A stretch of DNA of 49,934 bases from contig JABHXC010000022.1 of assembly GCA_018657475.1 (NCBI GenBank), forward strand, positions 1 to 49,934, read 5' to 3'. The notes beneath the pieces were generated by a model. That model saw nothing but the letters and a program-made list of their open reading frames with translations, searched no databases and was not told the origin of the DNA. Source of the DNA: Candidatus Woesearchaeota archaeon (lineage in GTDB: Archaea; Nanobdellota; Nanobdellia; Woesearchaeales; GW2011-AR9). Positions 8,586 through 49,916 of the stretch are shown here, one piece after another (within the stretch, counting starts at the first letter, position 1; each line of letters starts with the position of its first letter). The translations under genes and the position numbers were made by a program.

Positions 8586-8732
8586 CGGACCTGGGAGGAC
8601 TTTCAAAGATTCTCAGATTTATGAGCGGGAACGCAGTTGACCGCGAATCCCCCTACCAGATCTGGGAGATCTGTTTGAACCCCCGATCCCAACCTTAGGA
8701 GGGTTGTGCCCTATCCACTAGGCTACAGGTCC
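8586..8732 (-). tRNA. tRNA-Arg(CCU) with a 74-nt intron in the T-loop (59/60)
   Basis: Hand fold: GGACCTG TA GCCT AGTGGATA GGGC A CAACC CTCCTAA GGTTG GGATC GGGGG TTCAAA[intron]T CCTCC CAGGTCC G. The spliced product is a canonical 73-nt cloverleaf. Confidence 0.85.
8600..8673 (-). other. BHB intron of tRNA-Arg (position 59/60, 74 nt)
   Basis: Outer helix GGGGG/CCTCC, central 4-bp helix TTCA/TGAA, bulges AA|C and AG|T. Splicing restores the T-loop TTCAAAT. There is an internal hairpin CAGATCT-ccc-AGATCTG. Confidence 0.75.
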
Positions 8733-8761
8733 GTAGAAATGAAGTTTAGTCAATAACTTTT

Positions 8762-17755: not shown

Positions 17756-18744
17756 CGCTTAAAACTACTGGACTAAACGAACTATTAGAGAGTTGTAATA
17801 CATATTCAGAAAATAATAGTATTATCAAAGAACGAATTACTGATTTAGAAGCAAGAGTAAATGATTTTGTTATTGAACGGAATTATGAAGAAACTAAAGT
17901 TAATGCTGCTCATGTTGTTCTTAAACTTGTAACAGAAAGTTTAAAGGAAGGATTATTTTTAGGTGTAGAGGTAATGAATCCTATATATAAAATTAATTTT
18001 GCGCGCTATATAAGGTCAAAGAAGACTCGTAGAGATGTAACTTCAAGATTGTACTCTACATTTAAAAACTTGCCAAAATTTCCTATTTCTTCAGGAGCTA
18101 GGATTTTTTTTGCTGAGGAAATAATTGATCTTTTAGATCCTGAACATTGTTATGGGGCAATTGTTGGAGAAGGGATTTTAGATTCTGAAAAGGAAAACTA
18201 TTTTGCTATGATTAAACCTCATTATGAAAAATTAATTAGTCAAATTAGTAAAAGTGTAAAATATGCTGATAAAACACTGCGAAATTTTCCTTTATTAACT
18301 GCACCATATTTTGATCAATTAATTAATGGTATTTTTGTAAATGGTCCGTTAGCTGTTCTTGATATTGTCAAAAAGAATGATAATGCGGCTGGAATGATGA
18401 CAAAGAAACATGTTGAAAGATTAATTGAAGATGCTGCTGAAGATCCTATTGATTATAGTAATATATTTAGATACTTGCCAGACAAATTATTTGATGAATA
18501 TAAAACACTAATTTGTGTGACTGCAATAAGTAATCCACTAATATATCAAACAATGCAGGAATTAGATCTATTTGTAGATGCAGCTCAACCTATTGAAAGT
18601 CGTTTAAATTTTTTAATGCAGTACAGAGAAAAGCTTAGAATGAATGCAGGAGCATTATCTATTTCTCCTGTTAATGTAGAAGGTGGAGAATTATCTTTGG
18701 GCTATGAAGAAAATGGATTAGCGCTAATTGAGGATTTAGAATGA
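17752..18744 (+). CDS. hypothetical protein, translationally coupled to nfi; C-terminal LSLxYxxxxLxLIE[DE] tail
   Basis: ATGA start/stop overlap with nfi. 330 aa, helical, no recognised domain. Confidence 0.65.
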   Translation: MTLKTTGLNELLESCNTYSENNSIIKERITDLEARVNDFVIERNYEETKVNAAHVVLKLVTESLKEGLFLGVEVMNPIYKINFARYIRSKKTRRDVTSRLYSTFKNLPKFPISSGARIFFAEEIIDLLDPEHCYGAIVGEGILDSEKENYFAMIKPHYEKLISQISKSVKYADKTLRNFPLLTAPYFDQLINGIFVNGPLAVLDIVKKNDNAAGMMTKKHVERLIEDAAEDPIDYSNIFRYLPDKLFDEYKTLICVTAISNPLIYQTMQELDLFVDAAQPIESRLNFLMQYREKLRMNAGALSISPVNVEGGELSLGYEENGLALIEDLE

Positions 18745-20141
18745 AACTTAGATTGCCTTTTTTCGGAAAGAAAGAACCTGATAATCCTAAATTAGAAGAT
18801 GTCTTAGCTAACTGTGCAAGTGATCTTGGTAGAGCAAAAGTTATTAAAAAACTTTTATTAGAAACAGATTCTTCTATTCCTCAACAACTTGTATTAAGAG
18901 CAGTAAAAATCTTTGAAAAAGCTGATGACTACACTTCTGCAACCAGATTAACTTCTGAATTAGGTATGGTTGATGAAACTATTGAAATATATGTTAGAAA
19001 TAAAAATTATTTCCGAGCTGTAGAGGTTGCTGAAAGAAACTATTTAACAGAACTTGCTCAGAATCTAAGAGAAGAAGGATTAGATTACAATGAAAAGAAA
19101 GGGAATTTTTTAGTAGCAGCTATGTTCGCTAGCAAACTTGAACTTTATGATCGTGCTAGTGGATTATGTGAACAAGTTGAAGAATTTGAATCTGCAGCGA
19201 AATACGCAGAAAAAGCTGGTCAGAAAGAAAGAGCAGCTCGGATGTATCAGTTAGCAGGAAGTCCAGATAAAGCCATCCGAATTCTAGAAGATATGGGAGA
19301 TTTAGAAGAAGCCTTAGATATCTGTCTTGAAATAAACAATATTGCTAAAGCAGCTTCGATACTCGATGATTTAGAAAGATTTGAAGAAGCAATTGAATTA
19401 CAAGTTAATGCTGGAAATTTATTTGGAGCTGCATTAATTGCAGAACATGCTTTTTTAACCGAACGAGCAATAGACTTGCACAAACAGGATGGTGGTTATT
19501 ATTGTGCTTCTGAATTAGTTGAAGATCCTCTTCAGAAGAGAGTAATCTTCTTAGAAGGAATGAATCGTTTTTTTAATGAAGACAATTTAGCAGATGCTGC
19601 TAAATACGCTAGTTTAGCAGGATTAAAAGTTCAAGCCAGTGAATTATATGAACAGGCTAAAGATTATGTCTCAGCAGCACAATGTGCTAATGCAACTGGA
19701 GACTTAGAAAGAGTTATGGAATTACATAAAAAACATAGACAAGTATCTCTCACTGCTCCCATATTGTTAGAGGCTGGTTTAGTAGAAGAAGCTAGCCAAG
19801 TTTATGCTGAAAGAAAATTTTATAGAGAAGCGATCAATGTTTTAACTAAAGCAGGATTAAAAGACAAAGCTGAAGAAGTTGCTTTCAGAGCCTTTGAATA
19901 TCATGAAGGAAATGAGAATTATAAATCTGCATATGAGATAGCAGAGTTAGCTGGTTTATCAGAACAAGCAGAACATTATGTGTTACTAGAAAAACTTTTA
20001 GGAGATTCGAATAGTAATGGAACATTTGAACTCGACACAACCACTTCAGATACTAACGGCTTAGCTTTATATGATGAAGGAGATGCAAAGTTATCATTAA
20101 CTTATGATCAGGGGACATTAGAGTTAATTGAGGAAAAATAA
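18741..20141 (+). CDS. alpha-solenoid (TPR-like helical repeat) protein with the same C-terminal tail motif
   Basis: ATGA overlap with the upstream ORF. It has repeated units of the form Y..AA.YAEKAG..E.A, and the tail is KLSLTYDQGTLELIEEK. Confidence 0.65.
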   Translation: MKLRLPFFGKKEPDNPKLEDVLANCASDLGRAKVIKKLLLETDSSIPQQLVLRAVKIFEKADDYTSATRLTSELGMVDETIEIYVRNKNYFRAVEVAERNYLTELAQNLREEGLDYNEKKGNFLVAAMFASKLELYDRASGLCEQVEEFESAAKYAEKAGQKERAARMYQLAGSPDKAIRILEDMGDLEEALDICLEINNIAKAASILDDLERFEEAIELQVNAGNLFGAALIAEHAFLTERAIDLHKQDGGYYCASELVEDPLQKRVIFLEGMNRFFNEDNLADAAKYASLAGLKVQASELYEQAKDYVSAAQCANATGDLERVMELHKKHRQVSLTAPILLEAGLVEEASQVYAERKFYREAINVLTKAGLKDKAEEVAFRAFEYHEGNENYKSAYEIAELAGLSEQAEHYVLLEKLLGDSNSNGTFELDTTTSDTNGLALYDEGDAKLSLTYDQGTLELIEEK

Positions 20142-41935: not shown

Positions 41936-42688
41936 ATGAAAGAATTAGAAGCAGAATTTCTTGGAAGATATTTTGGGGATGGTTGTTTAACTGTAAAAAA
42001 TAATAAAGCACAATTTTCTATAACTGGTGATTTAAAAGAAGAAAAAGAGTTTTACAAAAGAGTTGTTGTTCCAGAATTTAATGAATTGTTTAATCTTTCT
42101 TTAAAGTTAAGAGAGTATAAATCTAATGGTGTTTGTGGTTTATATTATTCAAGTAAAAATTTTGCAAGAGAATTACAAGAAACATATAATCTTAAACCTG
42201 GAAAGAAATTAAATGTTAATTTACCTCTTCTTAAGACTAAAAATGAAAAAATAGCTTTTTTAAGAGGAATTTTTGATACCGATGGTAGTATTTATTTTTG
42301 TAAAAGTTATTTTAAAACTAAAAAACCAACTTTTTGTAACTCATTTCATTATAAACCAAAGATAAAAATAGCTTTAATCTCTGAAAAAATAATCACTTTT
42401 ATTTATAACATATTCTTGGAACTTGATCTCTCTCCAAGGATGTATTCTCCAAGAAAGCAAAAAAAACAAGAAAACATAATTTATGCGTTGGTATTGGATA
42501 ACGATAAAGATGTTAAAAAATGGATCACAGAAATTGGTTTTAAAAATATTAAACATAAAACAAAAGTAAAAGTTTGGGAAAAATATGGTTTTTGTCCGCC
42601 AAAAACAACAATAAAAGATAGATATATGATTCTTCAAGGGGTTTTAGATCCACTAACATTTTATTCTTGGAAACAGAATGATTTATAA
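41936..42688 (+). CDS. free-standing double-motif LAGLIDADG endonuclease-like protein
   Basis: LGRYFGDGC and LRGIFDTDGSIYF. TTTATATT box at 41907-41914, 22 nt before the ATG. Confidence 0.8.
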   Translation: MKELEAEFLGRYFGDGCLTVKNNKAQFSITGDLKEEKEFYKRVVVPEFNELFNLSLKLREYKSNGVCGLYYSSKNFARELQETYNLKPGKKLNVNLPLLKTKNEKIAFLRGIFDTDGSIYFCKSYFKTKKPTFCNSFHYKPKIKIALISEKIITFIYNIFLELDLSPRMYSPRKQKKQENIIYALVLDNDKDVKKWITEIGFKNIKHKTKVKVWEKYGFCPPKTTIKDRYMILQGVLDPLTFYSWKQNDL

Positions 42689-42781
42689 ATAACTTCTAGG
42701 TTCAGATTATAAACTTACTATGCGAAGAGACACCTGTGATACAGACATGCGGGGGTAGCAAAGTCTGGTTAAATGCGCAGG

Positions 42782-42802
42782 AGGGCTTTAGTGCTCTGCG
42801 AA
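42782..42802 (+). other. BHB intron 1 of tRNA-Leu (30/31, 21 nt)
   Basis: Central helix CGCA/TGCG, bulges GG|A and AA|A, inner hairpin GGGC-TTTAGT-GCTC. Confidence 0.75.
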
Positions 42803-42809
42803 ACTTAAG

Positions 42810-42852
42810 ACCAGCTTGATAGATTCTCTATTGAGCTAAGATTGTGTAAGCA
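42810..42852 (+). other. intron 2 of tRNA-Leu (canonical 37/38, 43 nt)
   Basis: Anticodon-loop CTTA pairs with TAAG 2 nt before the 3' site. Bulges AG|A and CA|A, outer helix CAGGA/TCCTG. The inner part is an 11-bp hairpin AGCTTGATAGA/TCTATTGAGCT, so the form is relaxed (BHL-like). Confidence 0.65.
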
Positions 42853-42973
42853 ATCCTGTCTCTTAGTGGGTTCGAGGGTTCAAATCCCTTCCCCCGCACA
42901 TTTTCTTTTTATTTTCTTTAATTGCTATATTTGAAACCATAGTTTTATAAACTGACCATTCAATTTGATGATT

Positions 42974-44676: not shown

Positions 44677-45330
44677 GTGATAGAACTTAATGAAGAAATT
44701 TGTGAATTTATAGGGGCTTTAATTGGTGATGGTTATATTGGTAATTATGGTTCAAGAAAGCAGCAATATCTTATTGGGTTGGTTGGACACAATAAACTGG
44801 ACAAAAATTACTTTGTAGATTATCTTTATCCTTTAATTAAGAGAAATTTTAATTTTGTAAATCCACATATTTATTATAGATCTGATGAGAATACTATTCG
44901 CTTGGTTATTTATTCTAAGCGTTTGTTTATGTTTCTTACGTCTCTTGGAATGCCAATAGGCAAGAAGTCAAGAATCATTAAAATTCCTCAAAAGATTTTA
45001 GAAAAAGAAAGTCATATTTGTGCAACAATAAGAGGAATTTTTGATACAGATGGTTGTGTTTTTTTGGATCGTCGTTTGAAATATAAACAACCTTATCCTC
45101 GTTTGGTGCTTCAATCAGCAAGTATTCCATTGATTGAACAGCTAGAAAATTATCTTGGGAACTATTTTACGCTTTATGTGAAAAAAAATAATCGAGATGG
45201 TTATAGGAATAATTTAGAGATTTATGGCCATCAACAGCTAGAAAGCTTTTTAAAGCGAATAGGTCTTTCGAATCAAAGACACCTGTCTAGGTGCCCCCAT
45301 GGCCTAGCGGTAAGGTTTTCACCTCGCTAA
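44677..45330 (+). CDS. free-standing double-motif LAGLIDADG endonuclease-like protein
   Basis: IGALIGDGYIG and IRGIFDTDGCVFL. GTG start. The 3' end reads into tRNA-Thr exon 1 and intron 1. Confidence 0.75.
   Translation: MIELNEEICEFIGALIGDGYIGNYGSRKQQYLIGLVGHNKLDKNYFVDYLYPLIKRNFNFVNPHIYYRSDENTIRLVIYSKRLFMFLTSLGMPIGKKSRIIKIPQKILEKESHICATIRGIFDTDGCVFLDRRLKYKQPYPRLVLQSASIPLIEQLENYLGNYFTLYVKKNNRDGYRNNLEIYGHQQLESFLKRIGLSNQRHLSRCPHGLAVRFSPR
45312..45330 (+). other. BHB intron 1 of tRNA-Thr (D-loop, 20/21, 19 nt)
   Basis: AGCG GT|A AGGT-TTTC-ACCT CGCT AA|A: central helix AGCG/CGCT with two 3-nt bulges. Confidence 0.75.
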
Positions 45331-45338
45331 ATGGCGTT

Positions 45339-45357
45339 AGAACAATAGTTCCGCTAA
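45339..45357 (+). other. BHB intron 2 of tRNA-Thr (anticodon stem, 28/29, 19 nt)
   Basis: GGCG TT|A GAAC-AATA-GTTC CGCT AA|A: the same architecture as intron 1. Confidence 0.75.
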
Positions 45358-45413
45358 ACCTTGGTAAGGTAGAGATCCCGGGTTCAATTCCCGGTGGGGG
45401 CTCCATTTTTACT

Positions 45414-46238
45414 ATGGTAGAACTTCCTGAAAAGTTAAGAGATGAACTTAAAACGGTAATTGACATTATTCGGGAAGCCGGAGAAGTTTTACTTTCTTAT
45501 CAAGATACTAATAACGTGAAAAAGAAAGAAGATGGAACTTATGTTACAGAAGCTGATCATGCTGTATCTTCATTTATTCATAAAAACCTTGCATCAAGAT
45601 TTCCAGAATATGGTTATGTTGATGAAGAATTAACTCCATCTGAAGAAGAATTACAAAAAGAGTTTTGTTGGGTTATTGATCCATTAGATAGCACGCGAGA
45701 TTTTGTTGAAGGAAGGGACGGTTTTTCAATCATTATTGGTTTGTTACATAAAGGTAAACCAGTATTAGGAGTAGCTTATCAACCACAACAAGAAGTATTA
45801 TATTATGCTGTTAAAGGAGAAGGAGCTTATGTTGTAAGGTTTGGTAAAACATTAAAGTTACAAGTTTCACAAGATAAAACATTACGTTTAGTTATTACTC
45901 GTTCTAGAAAAGTAGCAGCAGAGACGACATGGTTAAGAGAAGTATTACATCCTGTATCTTTAGTAAGAAAAGGTGGTTCATTAAAAATTGTTGATGTAGC
46001 TACGGGAATGGCAACATTATTCTTAATTTTACCTGTTGGAGTGATGTCTGTATGGGATTTATGTGGGACAACAATCATTTTAGAAGAAGCCGGTGGTACT
46101 ATCACAGACTTTACTGGAGAATCATTAAATTTTTTAACTTTAAAACATACTAAAGGTATACTAGCATCAAACTCAATAGGGCATGAAATGTTAGTACAAA
46201 AATTACAAGATGCTGAAAGAAATCACAAAGAAAATTAA
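45414..46238 (+). CDS. inositol monophosphatase / CysQ-family phosphatase
   Basis: TEADHAV, WVIDPLDSTRDF, WDLCGTTIILEEAGG. Start set at ATG 45414 because the ORF-track start at 45291 lies inside the tRNA. Confidence 0.8.
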   Translation: MVELPEKLRDELKTVIDIIREAGEVLLSYQDTNNVKKKEDGTYVTEADHAVSSFIHKNLASRFPEYGYVDEELTPSEEELQKEFCWVIDPLDSTRDFVEGRDGFSIIIGLLHKGKPVLGVAYQPQQEVLYYAVKGEGAYVVRFGKTLKLQVSQDKTLRLVITRSRKVAAETTWLREVLHPVSLVRKGGSLKIVDVATGMATLFLILPVGVMSVWDLCGTTIILEEAGGTITDFTGESLNFLTLKHTKGILASNSIGHEMLVQKLQDAERNHKEN

Positions 46239-49023: not shown

Positions 49024-49088
49024 ATTAATTAGGTATTTGATTTTATTTTAAAACTTATGATTTAATATTGAGTTATATGAATAAAGAG

Positions 49089-49207
49089 CGCCAGCGCCCG
49101 GATTTGAACCGGGATATCCCGAAGGAAACAGGAGTTCAGTCAATCTAGGTTCCAGTCTTACGCCTTCTAAAAGAAGTCTGCGCAGTACCAGATTGTGCCA
49201 CGCTGGC
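49089..49207 (-). tRNA. tRNA-Ser(GGA)-like class II tRNA with one BHB intron plus an unresolved 15-nt insertion
   Basis: GCCAGCG TG GCA CAATCTGGTAC TGC G CAG[20 nt]GA CTGGAAC[15 nt]TCCTG TTTCCTTCGGGATAT CCCGG TTCAAAT CCGGG CGCTGGC G. The discriminator G and the long variable arm fit Ser. Confidence 0.65.
49158..49177 (-). other. BHB intron 1 of tRNA-Ser (29/30, 20 nt)
   Basis: GCGC AG|A CTTCT-TTT-AGAAG GCGT AA|G: central helix GCGC/GCGT. Splicing joins CAG to GA, which completes the stem CAGGA/TCCTG. Confidence 0.7.
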
Positions 49208-49232: not shown

Positions 49233-49916
49233 TTATAAATTTAATGTTGCTTTAAGAGTTTCTGTCTTCTTCTTGTGATAAAAACCAATAATCTTGTAAT
49301 ATCTTTCTCTTGCACTTTTTTGATTAATGGAAATAATGTGAACTTTTGAATAGGTTTCTTGTTTGGGCTGATATTTATAGTTACAATGATTTATTTGAAA
49401 CTCAGAAAGAAGATTTGAAATATTTTTCATTCCATTTTCATTCACTGTTTGAACCCTAATTGTCTTTTTTCCAACATATGCTTCTGCTGAGAAAAATGCT
49501 CTCAGCCAATTTATTTTTGATTCTTGACAAGTAAGAATAGAGTTTGGGAGGTTCCAGTTATGAGTATCAAACTTTGCAAGTTTTAAAAGGTCAGTAACGA
49601 TTAATTTGGAAGTTTTTCTAACTGCAAAATAATTCTTTAATTTTTTTGTAGAGGGATTTTTTAAGTAAACTTTGTTTAATGCGTCAATATATACATCTTT
49701 CATTAACTCATCATCAGGAAAAAAATCTAATTGATAATGATTATAACTCTTTTCTCTTCTAACTTGCACACTTCCATCTCCAGCGAGAAAACCACATAAC
49801 ATTGCTTTTAAGATTCTTGTTTCTTCATTTTGTATCATTGCTGCTTTTTCTTTAGCAATTTTACTCTTCCAACGGGAATCAGCAATTTTCTTATTTCTTT
49901 TAGACAAATCTAACAT
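49233..49916 (-). CDS. free-standing double-motif LAGLIDADG endonuclease-like protein
   Basis: LCGFLAGDGSV and LRAFFSAEAYV. Its stop codon overlaps the TATA box (TTTATAAA 49232-49239) that sits 24 nt upstream of tRNA-Ser. Confidence 0.7.
   Translation of the reverse strand: MLDLSKRNKKIADSRWKSKIAKEKAAMIQNEETRILKAMLCGFLAGDGSVQVRREKSYNHYQLDFFPDDELMKDVYIDALNKVYLKNPSTKKLKNYFAVRKTSKLIVTDLLKLAKFDTHNWNLPNSILTCQESKINWLRAFFSAEAYVGKKTIRVQTVNENGMKNISNLLSEFQINHCNYKYQPKQETYSKVHIISINQKSARERYYKIIGFYHKKKTETLKATLNL

Follow-up and report, generated by a model that had tools for sequence, protein, structure and literature searches.

The stretch analyzed here (referred to as the window) comprises positions 1–49,934 of contig JABHXC010000022.1 from a Candidatus Woesearchaeota archaeon (GenBank assembly GCA_018657475.1; 49,934 nt). 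It carries a tRNA-Thr(GGU) gene that is broken into three exons by two introns of equal length, with a micro-exon of only 8 nt between them, and that is abutted on its 5' side by the free-standing gene of a two-motif LAGLIDADG endonuclease (denoted LAG_Thr) (Table 1). Judged from its sequence, this is very probably a functional tRNA-Thr(GGU) gene with two 19-nt introns of the bulge–helix–bulge (BHB) class, at tRNA positions 20/21 and 28/29. Support for the two-intron reading comes from sequence, structure potential, the restored cloverleaf, and conservation with covariation in relatives.

Table 1. Coordinates of the tRNA-Thr(GGU) gene, its flanking elements, and the other split tRNA and LAGLIDADG genes of the window
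Feature	Position	Strand	Remarks
tRNA-Thr(GGU) gene, 3 exons and 2 introns	45293-45405	+	anticodon GGT 45363-45365; encoded CCA 45403-45405
Exon 1, GCCCCCATGGCCTAGCGGT	45293-45311	+	acceptor 5' strand, T8 G9, D-stem 5' strand GCCT, D-loop AGCGGT (positions 1-20)
Intron 1, AAGGTTTTCACCTCGCTAA, 19 nt	45312-45330	+	position 20/21, D-loop
Micro-exon, ATGGCGTT, 8 nt	45331-45338	+	A21, D-stem 3' strand T22-C25, G26, T27, T28
Intron 2, AGAACAATAGTTCCGCTAA, 19 nt	45339-45357	+	position 28/29, anticodon stem
Exon 3, ACCTTGGTAAGGTAGAGATCCCGGGTTCAATTCCCGGTGGGGGCTCCA	45358-45405	+	A29-C31, anticodon loop TTGGTAA, GGTAG, variable loop AGATC; T-arm CCGGG TTCAATT CCCGG; acceptor 3' strand TGGGGGC; T73; CCA
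T-run directly 3' of CCA	45406-45410	+	likely archaeal transcription stop, judged from sequence
TATA-box-like TTTTTAAA, ~40 nt 5' of tRNA-Thr	45247-45254	+	putative promoter
LAG_Thr, free-standing two-motif LAGLIDADG endonuclease gene	44677-45330	+	Pfam LAGLIDADG_3, PF14528
LAGLIDADG_3 ORF upstream of tRNA-Leu	41936-42688	+	
tRNA-Leu(UAA), two introns	42749-42898	+	spliced product ARAGORN tRNA-Leu(taa), 118.1
tRNA-Leu intron, 21 nt	42782-42802	+	position 30/31
tRNA-Leu micro-exon ACTTAAG, 7 nt	42803-42809	+	anticodon-bearing
tRNA-Leu intron, 43 nt	42810-42852	+	canonical position 37/38
LAGLIDADG_3 ORF upstream of tRNA-Ser	49233-49916	-	
tRNA-Ser (GGA or UGA), class II	49088-49207	-	ARAGORN miscall Lys(CTT)
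tRNA-Ser intron, ACTTCTTTTAGAAGGCGTAA, 20 nt	49158-49177	-	position 29/30, same BHB layout

Excision of both introns yields a 75-mer that ARAGORN calls as tRNA-Thr(GGT) with a score of 119.1. The product has a 7-bp acceptor stem followed by T8 and G9, a D-stem GCC(T)/(T)GGC with a T13xT22 mismatch, a D-loop AGCGGTA that includes A14, G18G19 and A21, and an anticodon stem TTACC/GGTAG preceded by G26. All universal tRNA positions are intact (U8, A14, G18G19, A21, G26, U33, G53-C61 and the T-loop TTCAATT), and removal of intron 2 yields the junction GCGTT↓ACC TTGGTAA GGTAG (here and below, arrows mark splice sites), as in intronless Woesearchaeota and Nitrososphaera tRNA-Thr(GGU) genes. In a profile hidden Markov model trained on 62 distinct intronless tRNA-Thr(GGU) genes, the best-scoring candidate was the two-intron product (48.7 bits), followed by a variant with introns of 17 and 19 nt (47.0 bits), a one-intron product proposed by ARAGORN (41.6 bits) and the unspliced gene (40.9 bits). 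We also enumerated single and paired excisions compatible with a BHB, requiring a central helix of 4 bp, bulges of 3 nt, and at least 2 bp in either the inner or the outer helix. Among the 631 compatible one- and two-intron excisions, a threonine tRNA arose solely from the proposed pair and from its variant with a 17-nt register of intron 1. A preliminary description of this DNA agrees with these results: its coordinates, two 19-mers, 8-nt exon, CGCTAA tails and encoded CCA were exact by direct reading, the canonical cloverleaf that it drew after removal of both introns (with G26, TTACC/GGTAG and TTGGTAA) is the one ARAGORN scores, and its assignment to tRNA-Thr(GGU) with introns at 20/21 and 28/29 has the highest profile score and finds the same sites in relatives.

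Each intron can form the archaeal BHB, that is, a 4-bp central helix (H) with 3-nt bulges on opposite strands that are cut after the second bulge base. In intron 1, H is AGCG/CGCT, the bulges are GT↓A and AA↓A, and the inner helix (h') is AGGT/ACCT around the loop TTTC; in intron 2, the corresponding elements are GGCG/CGCT (with one G.U pair), TT↓A and AA↓A, and GAAC/GTTC around the loop AATA. Folded in isolation, intron 1 gives ((((((((...((((....)))))))))...))) at -10.6 kcal/mol and intron 2 reaches -7.4 kcal/mol (z = -2.7). Neither intron attains the strict hBHBh' motif, and h' is 4 bp in each. The preliminary term "textbook BHB" therefore fits the central helices, bulges and inner helices, all of which are present, and fails for the outer helices, which are missing or mismatched, so that both motifs are of the relaxed HBh' type. 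Relaxed HBh' is a recognized BHB variant (PMC3239211), whose cleavage is known solely for broad-specificity endonucleases (PMC3239211, PMC5829648).

The same description called the two introns near-twins, which is true of their structural layout and not of their sequence: they are identical at eight of 19 positions, namely the first A, one loop position and the terminal CGCTAA. The tails are alike because the two exon contexts to which they pair are themselves similar (T-AGCG-GT↓A and T-GGCG-TT↓A). Moreover, all four non-canonical introns of the window share one layout (an A, a 4-bp stem with a loop of 4–6 nt, a 4-nt exon-pairing tail, and AA), so the twin look is the house style of this genome's introns and not a peculiarity of tRNA-Thr.

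We reached relatives of the gene through homologs of the upstream LAGLIDADG_3 open reading frame (ORF) and then read their DNA contexts. In five other contigs, from Woesearchaeota and Nanoarchaeota, an intron occupies site 28/29 in every case and site 20/21 in three of the five (L128, L130 and L132) (Table 2). The six precursors that we dissected, including that of the window, all splice in silico to an ARAGORN tRNA-Thr(GGT), with scores of 108.6–122.2. Taking two or more independent BHB introns per gene as multiple interruption, the window tRNA-Thr is multiply interrupted, and L132 has three introns.

Table 2. Introns of tRNA-Thr(GGU) genes adjoining LAG_Thr homologs, by tRNA position
Locus	LAGLIDADG identity	20/21	28/29	37/38	Remarks
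Window	100%	19 nt	19 nt	none	
L128	72%	18 nt	18 nt	none	
L129	63%	none	20 nt	21 nt	
L130	63%	31 nt	24 nt	none	
L131	60%	none	31 nt	16 nt	
L132	44%	15 nt	21 nt	~40 nt	
L135	45%	none	none	none	tRNA convergent

The closest relative, L128, reads GCCCCCGTGGCCTAGCGGT, AGGGTTTCACCTCGCTAA, AAGGCGTT and AGGACAAAGTCCCGCCAA in succession, followed by ACC..., and its introns match those of the window at ~17/19 and 15/19 positions (hand alignment). The differences preserve or improve pairing: the inner stem GAAC/GTTC becomes GGAC/GTCC through compensatory changes, the tail CGCT becomes CGCC, which turns the G.U pair into G-C, and a T-to-A change at exon position 22 restores the T13-A22 pair. Intron 1 of L128 forms a strict hBHBh' with a 4-bp outer helix. 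The introns of L129–L132 have stems quite different from those of the window. In an alignment of the BHB cores of ten non-canonical introns from the six loci, with loops replaced by a fixed spacer, 97.5% of cells were paired, compared with 69.7% after shuffling (none of 500 shuffles reached the observed value). Both sides had changed in seven of the eight pairs, the covariation score was 0.87 vs. 0.26, and slid-partner controls gave pairing of at most 44%.

A further Woesearchaeota genome (GCA_016185625.1; locus L121) has a tRNA-Thr(GGU) gene 5' of a nucleotidase (IMPase)–NurA pair, as in the window; that gene has a single intron, at the canonical 37/38 position, and its sites 20/21 and 28/29 are uninterrupted. 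Gene order thus indicates that the window locus is an orthologous tRNA-Thr slot, the intron set of which varies between lineages. Scans for the gene itself gave intronless genes: an exact pattern of the 3' half had no matches in the genome collection, a looser pattern returned at least 120 loci (for the most part intronless tRNA-Thr genes from bacteria and Methanobrevibacter, which we used as a reference set), and a metagenome scan returned just two unrelated intronless genes. Intronless tRNA-Thr(GGU) genes with a GCGTTACCTTGGTAAGGTAG core are found, for example, at L017 and L093. Upstream of the syntenic tRNA-Thr of L121 we noted a G+C-rich stretch of ~460 nt (L121:5440-5900) with no called gene, in which a tblastn search for endonuclease remnants was negative.

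Several observations weigh against the two-intron interpretation. Intron 2 has no outer helix, and the outer helix of intron 1 is the D-stem, which opens with the T13xT22 mismatch by the 3' bulge and then continues for 3 bp. The minimum-free-energy fold of the whole precursor contains the intron-2 hairpin and lacks the intron-1 BHB. A census of HBh' motifs (H of 4 bp, bulge, h' of 4 bp; 14–40 nt) on both strands of the window found no enrichment over dinucleotide shuffles (219 and 198 on the two strands vs. ~235 per strand in shuffled sequence); since the motif alone occurs at chance frequency, it is the restoration of the cloverleaf and the covariation that bear the argument. The intron boundaries of the relatives were set by a BHB search, which biases the alignment toward structure; their exon junctions were fixed independently, by the cloverleaf. 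Conservation in the relatives does not extend to the encoded CCA, and the window ORFs that we scanned yielded neither an EndA nor an RtcB gene. Finally, ARAGORN rates a rival cloverleaf as highly as the proposed one. A check with this program, suggested in the preliminary description, accordingly came out in two parts: the spliced product is called as tRNA-Thr(GGT), and the unspliced gene is read by ARAGORN -i as carrying one 37-nt intron, the 76-nt product of which scores 119.9 vs. 119.1. The ARAGORN scores do not discriminate between the two structures, and the case therefore rests on the rival's missing BHB, the profile scores and the relatives.

The rival single intron would lie at position 31/32 (45324-45360), with the AGGT and TCACC of intron 1 serving as the 3' strand of the D-stem and the 5' strand of the anticodon stem. 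Its splice sites have no BHB by hand check (three of four pairs in H, and h' absent). The structure also has to accommodate a C28xA42 mismatch and a two-nucleotide spacer separating the D-stem from the anticodon stem, it scores 7 bits less than the two-intron product in the profile, and intronless relatives carry GCG-TTACC where it would have TT-TCACC. It can be drawn in L128 too, but not in L129 or L131, where the 28/29 intron is present and the D-loop intron is absent. We regard it as very improbable; ATGGCGTTACC in the mature tRNA would be a mark incompatible with it. A closer alternative keeps the two-intron architecture and shortens intron 1 to 17 nt (45313-45329), with a central helix GCGG/TCGC and a 9-nt D-loop AGCGGTAAA. 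This register has an equal ARAGORN score (119.1), loses just 1.7 bits in the profile (47.0 vs. 48.7), and leaves a splice junction that is ambiguous by sequence. Its pairs, however, are fewer and weaker (one G.U in H, and an h' of 3 bp), whereas the 19-nt register mirrors intron 2, keeps the usual A21 immediately 5' of the D-stem strand, and has as its homolog in L128 the 18-nt register with the strict hBHBh' and its 4-bp outer helix; we consider the 17-nt register unlikely. That the locus is a decaying pseudogene or tRNA-like remnant beside a mobile LAGLIDADG gene, giving no functional tRNA, might be suspected from its abutting a selfish-type gene and from the T13xT22 mismatch in the D-stem, and the 50 kb of genome in view leave room for another tRNA-Thr(GGU) copy elsewhere. 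Yet every universal tRNA position is intact, the BHB helices and the cloverleaf are upheld by compensatory changes across six diverged loci, and the gene fills the syntenic tRNA-Thr(GGU) slot, which makes decay extremely improbable.

For the gene with introns of 19 and 19 nt, expression might proceed as follows. Transcription probably begins downstream of TTTTTAAA and probably stops at the T-run after the CCA, and RNase P would remove the leader. The element TTTTTAAA overlaps the 3' end of the LAGLIDADG coding sequence, over conserved 'FLK' codons, and TTTTTAAA(A) is also present at the equivalent place in L130 and L131. In the precursor, the 3' tail CGCT of each intron would pair with the exon bases 5' of the splice site (A14-G18 for intron 1, G23-G26 for intron 2) to form the central helix, with the 4-bp intron hairpin closing the 5' bulge and the 3' cut falling within AA↓A. 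A putative EndA would cleave past the second base of every 3-nt bulge, and a putative RtcB-type ligase would unite exon 1, the 8-nt exon and exon 3; the micro-exon may be kept in place by three D-stem and two anticodon-stem pairs. The central helix of the intron-2 BHB takes up G23-G26 and competes with the D-stem that closes the intron-1 BHB. Because G23-C25 are needed by both the central helix of the former and the outer helix of the latter, the two complete motifs are mutually exclusive, and the introns are therefore probably removed one after the other.

Multi-intron tRNA genes with micro-exons are already known from Thermoproteales and ARMAN-2; the tRNA-Thr gene adds a well-supported, doubly interrupted DPANN example with an 8-nt exon, an architecture that specialists will find ordinary. 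Thermoproteales have up to three BHB introns per tRNA gene at non-canonical positions (Sugahara 2007/2008, Fujishima 2010, summarized in PMC4033280, PMC4090602), often with relaxed HBh'/hBH motifs, and similar introns across genes and positions have been read there as intron "transposition" (PMC4033280, PMC4090602). The window gene resembles these in combining multiple relaxed BHB introns at non-canonical sites. Unlike the crenarchaeal Thermoproteales, the host is a low-GC, DPANN/Woesearchaeota-like organism with a probably different type of EndA, and an endonuclease gene abuts the tRNA gene, whereas none adjacent to tRNA genes is reported for Thermoproteales in the literature compared (PMC4033280, PMC4090602). 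ARMAN-2, also a DPANN archaeon, has a tRNA-Pro with two introns 6 nt apart, and its epsilon2 EndA cuts relaxed motifs in vitro (PMC3239211). The two genes share the arrangement of short BHB introns around a micro-exon (6 nt in ARMAN-2, 8 nt here), but the ARMAN-2 introns lie in the T-loop, are described as strict hBHBh' motifs and are served by an epsilon2 EndA, in contrast to the relaxed motifs of the D-loop and anticodon stem here. In Aeropyrum pernix, the D-loop intron of pre-tRNA-Thr2(UGU) is cut by purified (alpha-beta)2 EndA, an experimental result (PMC3241643); this is likewise a threonine tRNA, and it identifies a D-loop BHB as a workable EndA substrate, although it concerns a single intron in another isoacceptor of a crenarchaeon. 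Increased tRNA disruption has been reported in DPANN including Woesearchaeota (PMC4033280, PMC4090602, PMC5829648), and DPANN lineages with an L3-loop EndA have many disrupted tRNA genes (PMC5829648).

The LAG_Thr protein carries the motifs IGALIGDGY and IRGIFDTDG with their catalytic acidic residues; D18 and D125 are invariant in an alignment of 30 sequences and at least 90% conserved in 88 members. Its AlphaFold2 model (pLDDT 94.3, pTM 0.91) has the two-domain alpha-beta-beta-alpha-beta-beta-alpha fold, and Foldseek matched it to I-Tsp061I (E 9e-11, TM 0.72) and I-DmoI (TM up to 0.81). Going by these residues and this model, the family is apparently an active enzyme. I-DmoI and I-Tsp061I mobilize BHB introns of archaeal rRNA genes at the DNA level. 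LAG_Thr has both catalytic acidic residues and is predicted to adopt the same monomeric two-domain fold (TM 0.67-0.81); the genes of those enzymes, however, lie inside the rRNA BHB intron, whereas LAG_Thr lies outside the tRNA gene, the introns of which are too short to encode anything. The family is neither intron- nor intein-encoded, its genes being free-standing and placed either 5' of the tRNA gene or in convergent orientation to it. Other systems are also known to have homing endonuclease genes that are free-standing. The possibility that the LAGLIDADG ORF sits inside a tRNA-Thr intron was ruled out, as the tRNA is complete without any upstream exon. The conserved part of LAG_Thr stops ~10 nt short of the tRNA gene, and the ORF extends 38 nt into it, to a TAA within intron 1, for want of an earlier stop.

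More than 120 homologs of LAG_Thr, at 40–72% identity, were found in Woesearchaeota, Nanoarchaeota and unclassified-archaeon metagenome-assembled genomes; relatives in IMG/VR reached only 24% identity, none of them close. LAG_Thr adjoins tRNA-Thr(GGU) in seven out of seven DNA contexts, with its conserved C terminus 10–18 nt from the end of the acceptor stem and the tRNA either on the same strand or convergent. Protein sequences extend this picture: in ~98 of 110 members the residues past the ...SN.RH motif read like translated DNA of the tRNA acceptor end, an approximate count made with patterns picked post hoc (examples are ASVA(Q), APVA, MPL* and CPxGLAV for same-strand tails, and AGIEPA and ..GEI for the opposite strand). 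LAG_Thr was absent at the 120 listed loci with an intronless tRNA-Thr(GGU) and at L121. The LAG_Thr proteins of the window and L128 are 71% identical (44677-45291 vs. L128:2917-3582), compared with 42% for the flanking host genes (a 463-aa protein and NurA), a contrast that would fit either lateral movement of an endonuclease–tRNA cassette or unusually strong constraint.

The window contains two further LAGLIDADG_3 ORFs. The three are only 20–25% identical to one another, and each immediately precedes an intron-split tRNA gene on its own strand, namely tRNA-Leu(UAA), tRNA-Thr(GGU) or tRNA-Ser (Table 1). At the tRNA-Leu locus, Rfam gives a tRNA match of 39.1 bits with a 71-nt insertion, and we rejected an ARAGORN call of tRNA-Arg(CCT) with a 69-nt intron over the same positions, as the gene is tRNA-Leu(UAA) once both introns are removed. 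The two-intron architecture recurs in L121, L138 and L140, and the Leu-linked LAGLIDADG family adjoins an intron-split tRNA-Leu(UAA) in all contexts fetched, of which one is divergent and one is truncated at a contig end. In L140 (2720-3030; also L141), tRNA-Leu(UAA) follows a Leu-family endonuclease gene of 39% identity with the micro-exon ACTTAAG unchanged, and by eye it has three interruptions, namely a ~35-nt D-loop insertion, a 22-nt 30/31 intron and a canonical intron of ~100 nt. L128 carries a second, different LAGLIDADG gene (L128:1410-1991) upstream of a tRNA-Leu(UAA) (~2060-2190), which has a 30-nt insertion at ~9/10 and none at 30/31 or 37/38. The anticodon of the window's tRNA-Ser is ambiguous between GGA and UGA owing to a direct repeat (GACTGGAAC/GACTGAAC), and no BHB could be fitted by hand to a second intervening piece of 15 nt in that gene.

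That the LAG_Thr and Leu-linked families are tied to particular tRNA genes is well supported. A literature search found no paper describing such linkage of LAGLIDADG families to tRNA genes, which is not proof that none exists. In favor of a co-occurrence of introns and endonucleases, all six same-strand LAG_Thr contexts carry the 28/29 intron, and at least one non-canonical intron is present in 11 of 11 tRNA genes adjoining a LAGLIDADG gene (same-strand downstream or divergent), compared with one of seven unlinked genes (Fisher p = 0.0004, from orthologous loci with an effective sample of three or four). Other loci speak against it: judging from the read-through tails of P0124, P0156 and P0164, the tRNA-Thr genes linked to them lack introns at 20/21 and 28/29, the convergent tRNA-Thr of L135 is intronless, and the tRNA-Leu of L121 has a 30/31 intron and no endonuclease gene.

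A causal tie between endonucleases and introns, through target-site immunity, co-conversion or both, could exist and is an attractive hypothesis. In its fullest form, free-standing I-DmoI-like LAGLIDADG families of Woesearchaeota and Nanoarchaeota would each be dedicated to one tRNA gene (LAG_Thr to tRNA-Thr(GGU), the sister family to tRNA-Leu(UAA)), and the introns would interrupt the endonuclease target and be co-converted with the endonuclease gene; on the present sequence evidence, we see this as a speculative and rather unlikely proposal. A possible parallel, offered as a lead only, is the "collaborative homing" of F-CphI and the psbA intron in cyanophage S-PM2, which involves a free-standing endonuclease and an ORF-less intron (enzyme: PMC6083498). 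The resemblance is that of a free-standing endonuclease gene beside a gene with an ORF-less intron, and it differs in involving a group I intron, a phage and another nuclease family. If true, the dedicated-endonuclease proposal would supply the missing DNA-level mechanism for the spread and persistence of non-canonical archaeal tRNA introns. The idea, ascribed to Randau and Soll, that introns protect tRNA genes against attack at the DNA level would likewise gain a concrete example. An endonuclease family fixed beside an intron-rich tRNA gene in ~100 contigs, with a sister family on another tRNA, offers a system testable in vitro.

Split genes of this kind escape routine annotation. Default ARAGORN found no tRNA in the window, Rfam at its gathering threshold missed the tRNA-Thr locus, and a permissive antisense Rfam match over tRNA-Thr to 'Plastid-ycf2' was spurious. 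Public protein predictions run into the gene from both sides: a 315-aa 'nucleotidase' (45291-46238; P0001) begins at a GTG inside the tRNA region and includes translated tRNA, and so does a 217-aa 'homing endonuclease'. The C-terminal tails of the endonuclease family (P0121-P0240) are translated tRNA acceptor and D-arm, and can be used to infer the neighboring tRNA, even its intron state. Hidden split tRNA genes are a plausible reason why DPANN genomes seem to lack tRNAs, as has been suspected (PMC5829648).

The window has a GC content of 29–35% and encodes archaeal Spt5, FtsZ, a wyosine-synthesis enzyme, endonuclease V, TrmB, an H+-pyrophosphatase and NurA. The best named relative of the nucleotidase just 3' of tRNA-Thr is from a Ca. 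Woesearchaeota (45% identity), and a 6.7-kb JGI contig (sample 3300072015) carries a copy with 99% identity. The window's only Rfam tRNA match at gathering score (31.7 bits; hit 8662-8728) belongs to an element at 8662-8738 on the minus strand, with the anticodon CCT (Arg). Its T-loop measures ~10 nt, its acceptor stem contains a C4xA69 mismatch, and its 3' part overlaps with a perfect palindrome of 7 bp (CAGATCT-ccc-AGATCTG); a pseudogene, an unusual tRNA and a gene whose intron went unrecognized are all conceivable. Finally, we noted a 466-aa protein encoded on the plus strand (18741-20141) that matches the Pfam clathrin/VPS repeat region (E 2.4e-12) and several TPR models of the intraflagellar-transport type, which is unusual for DPANN.

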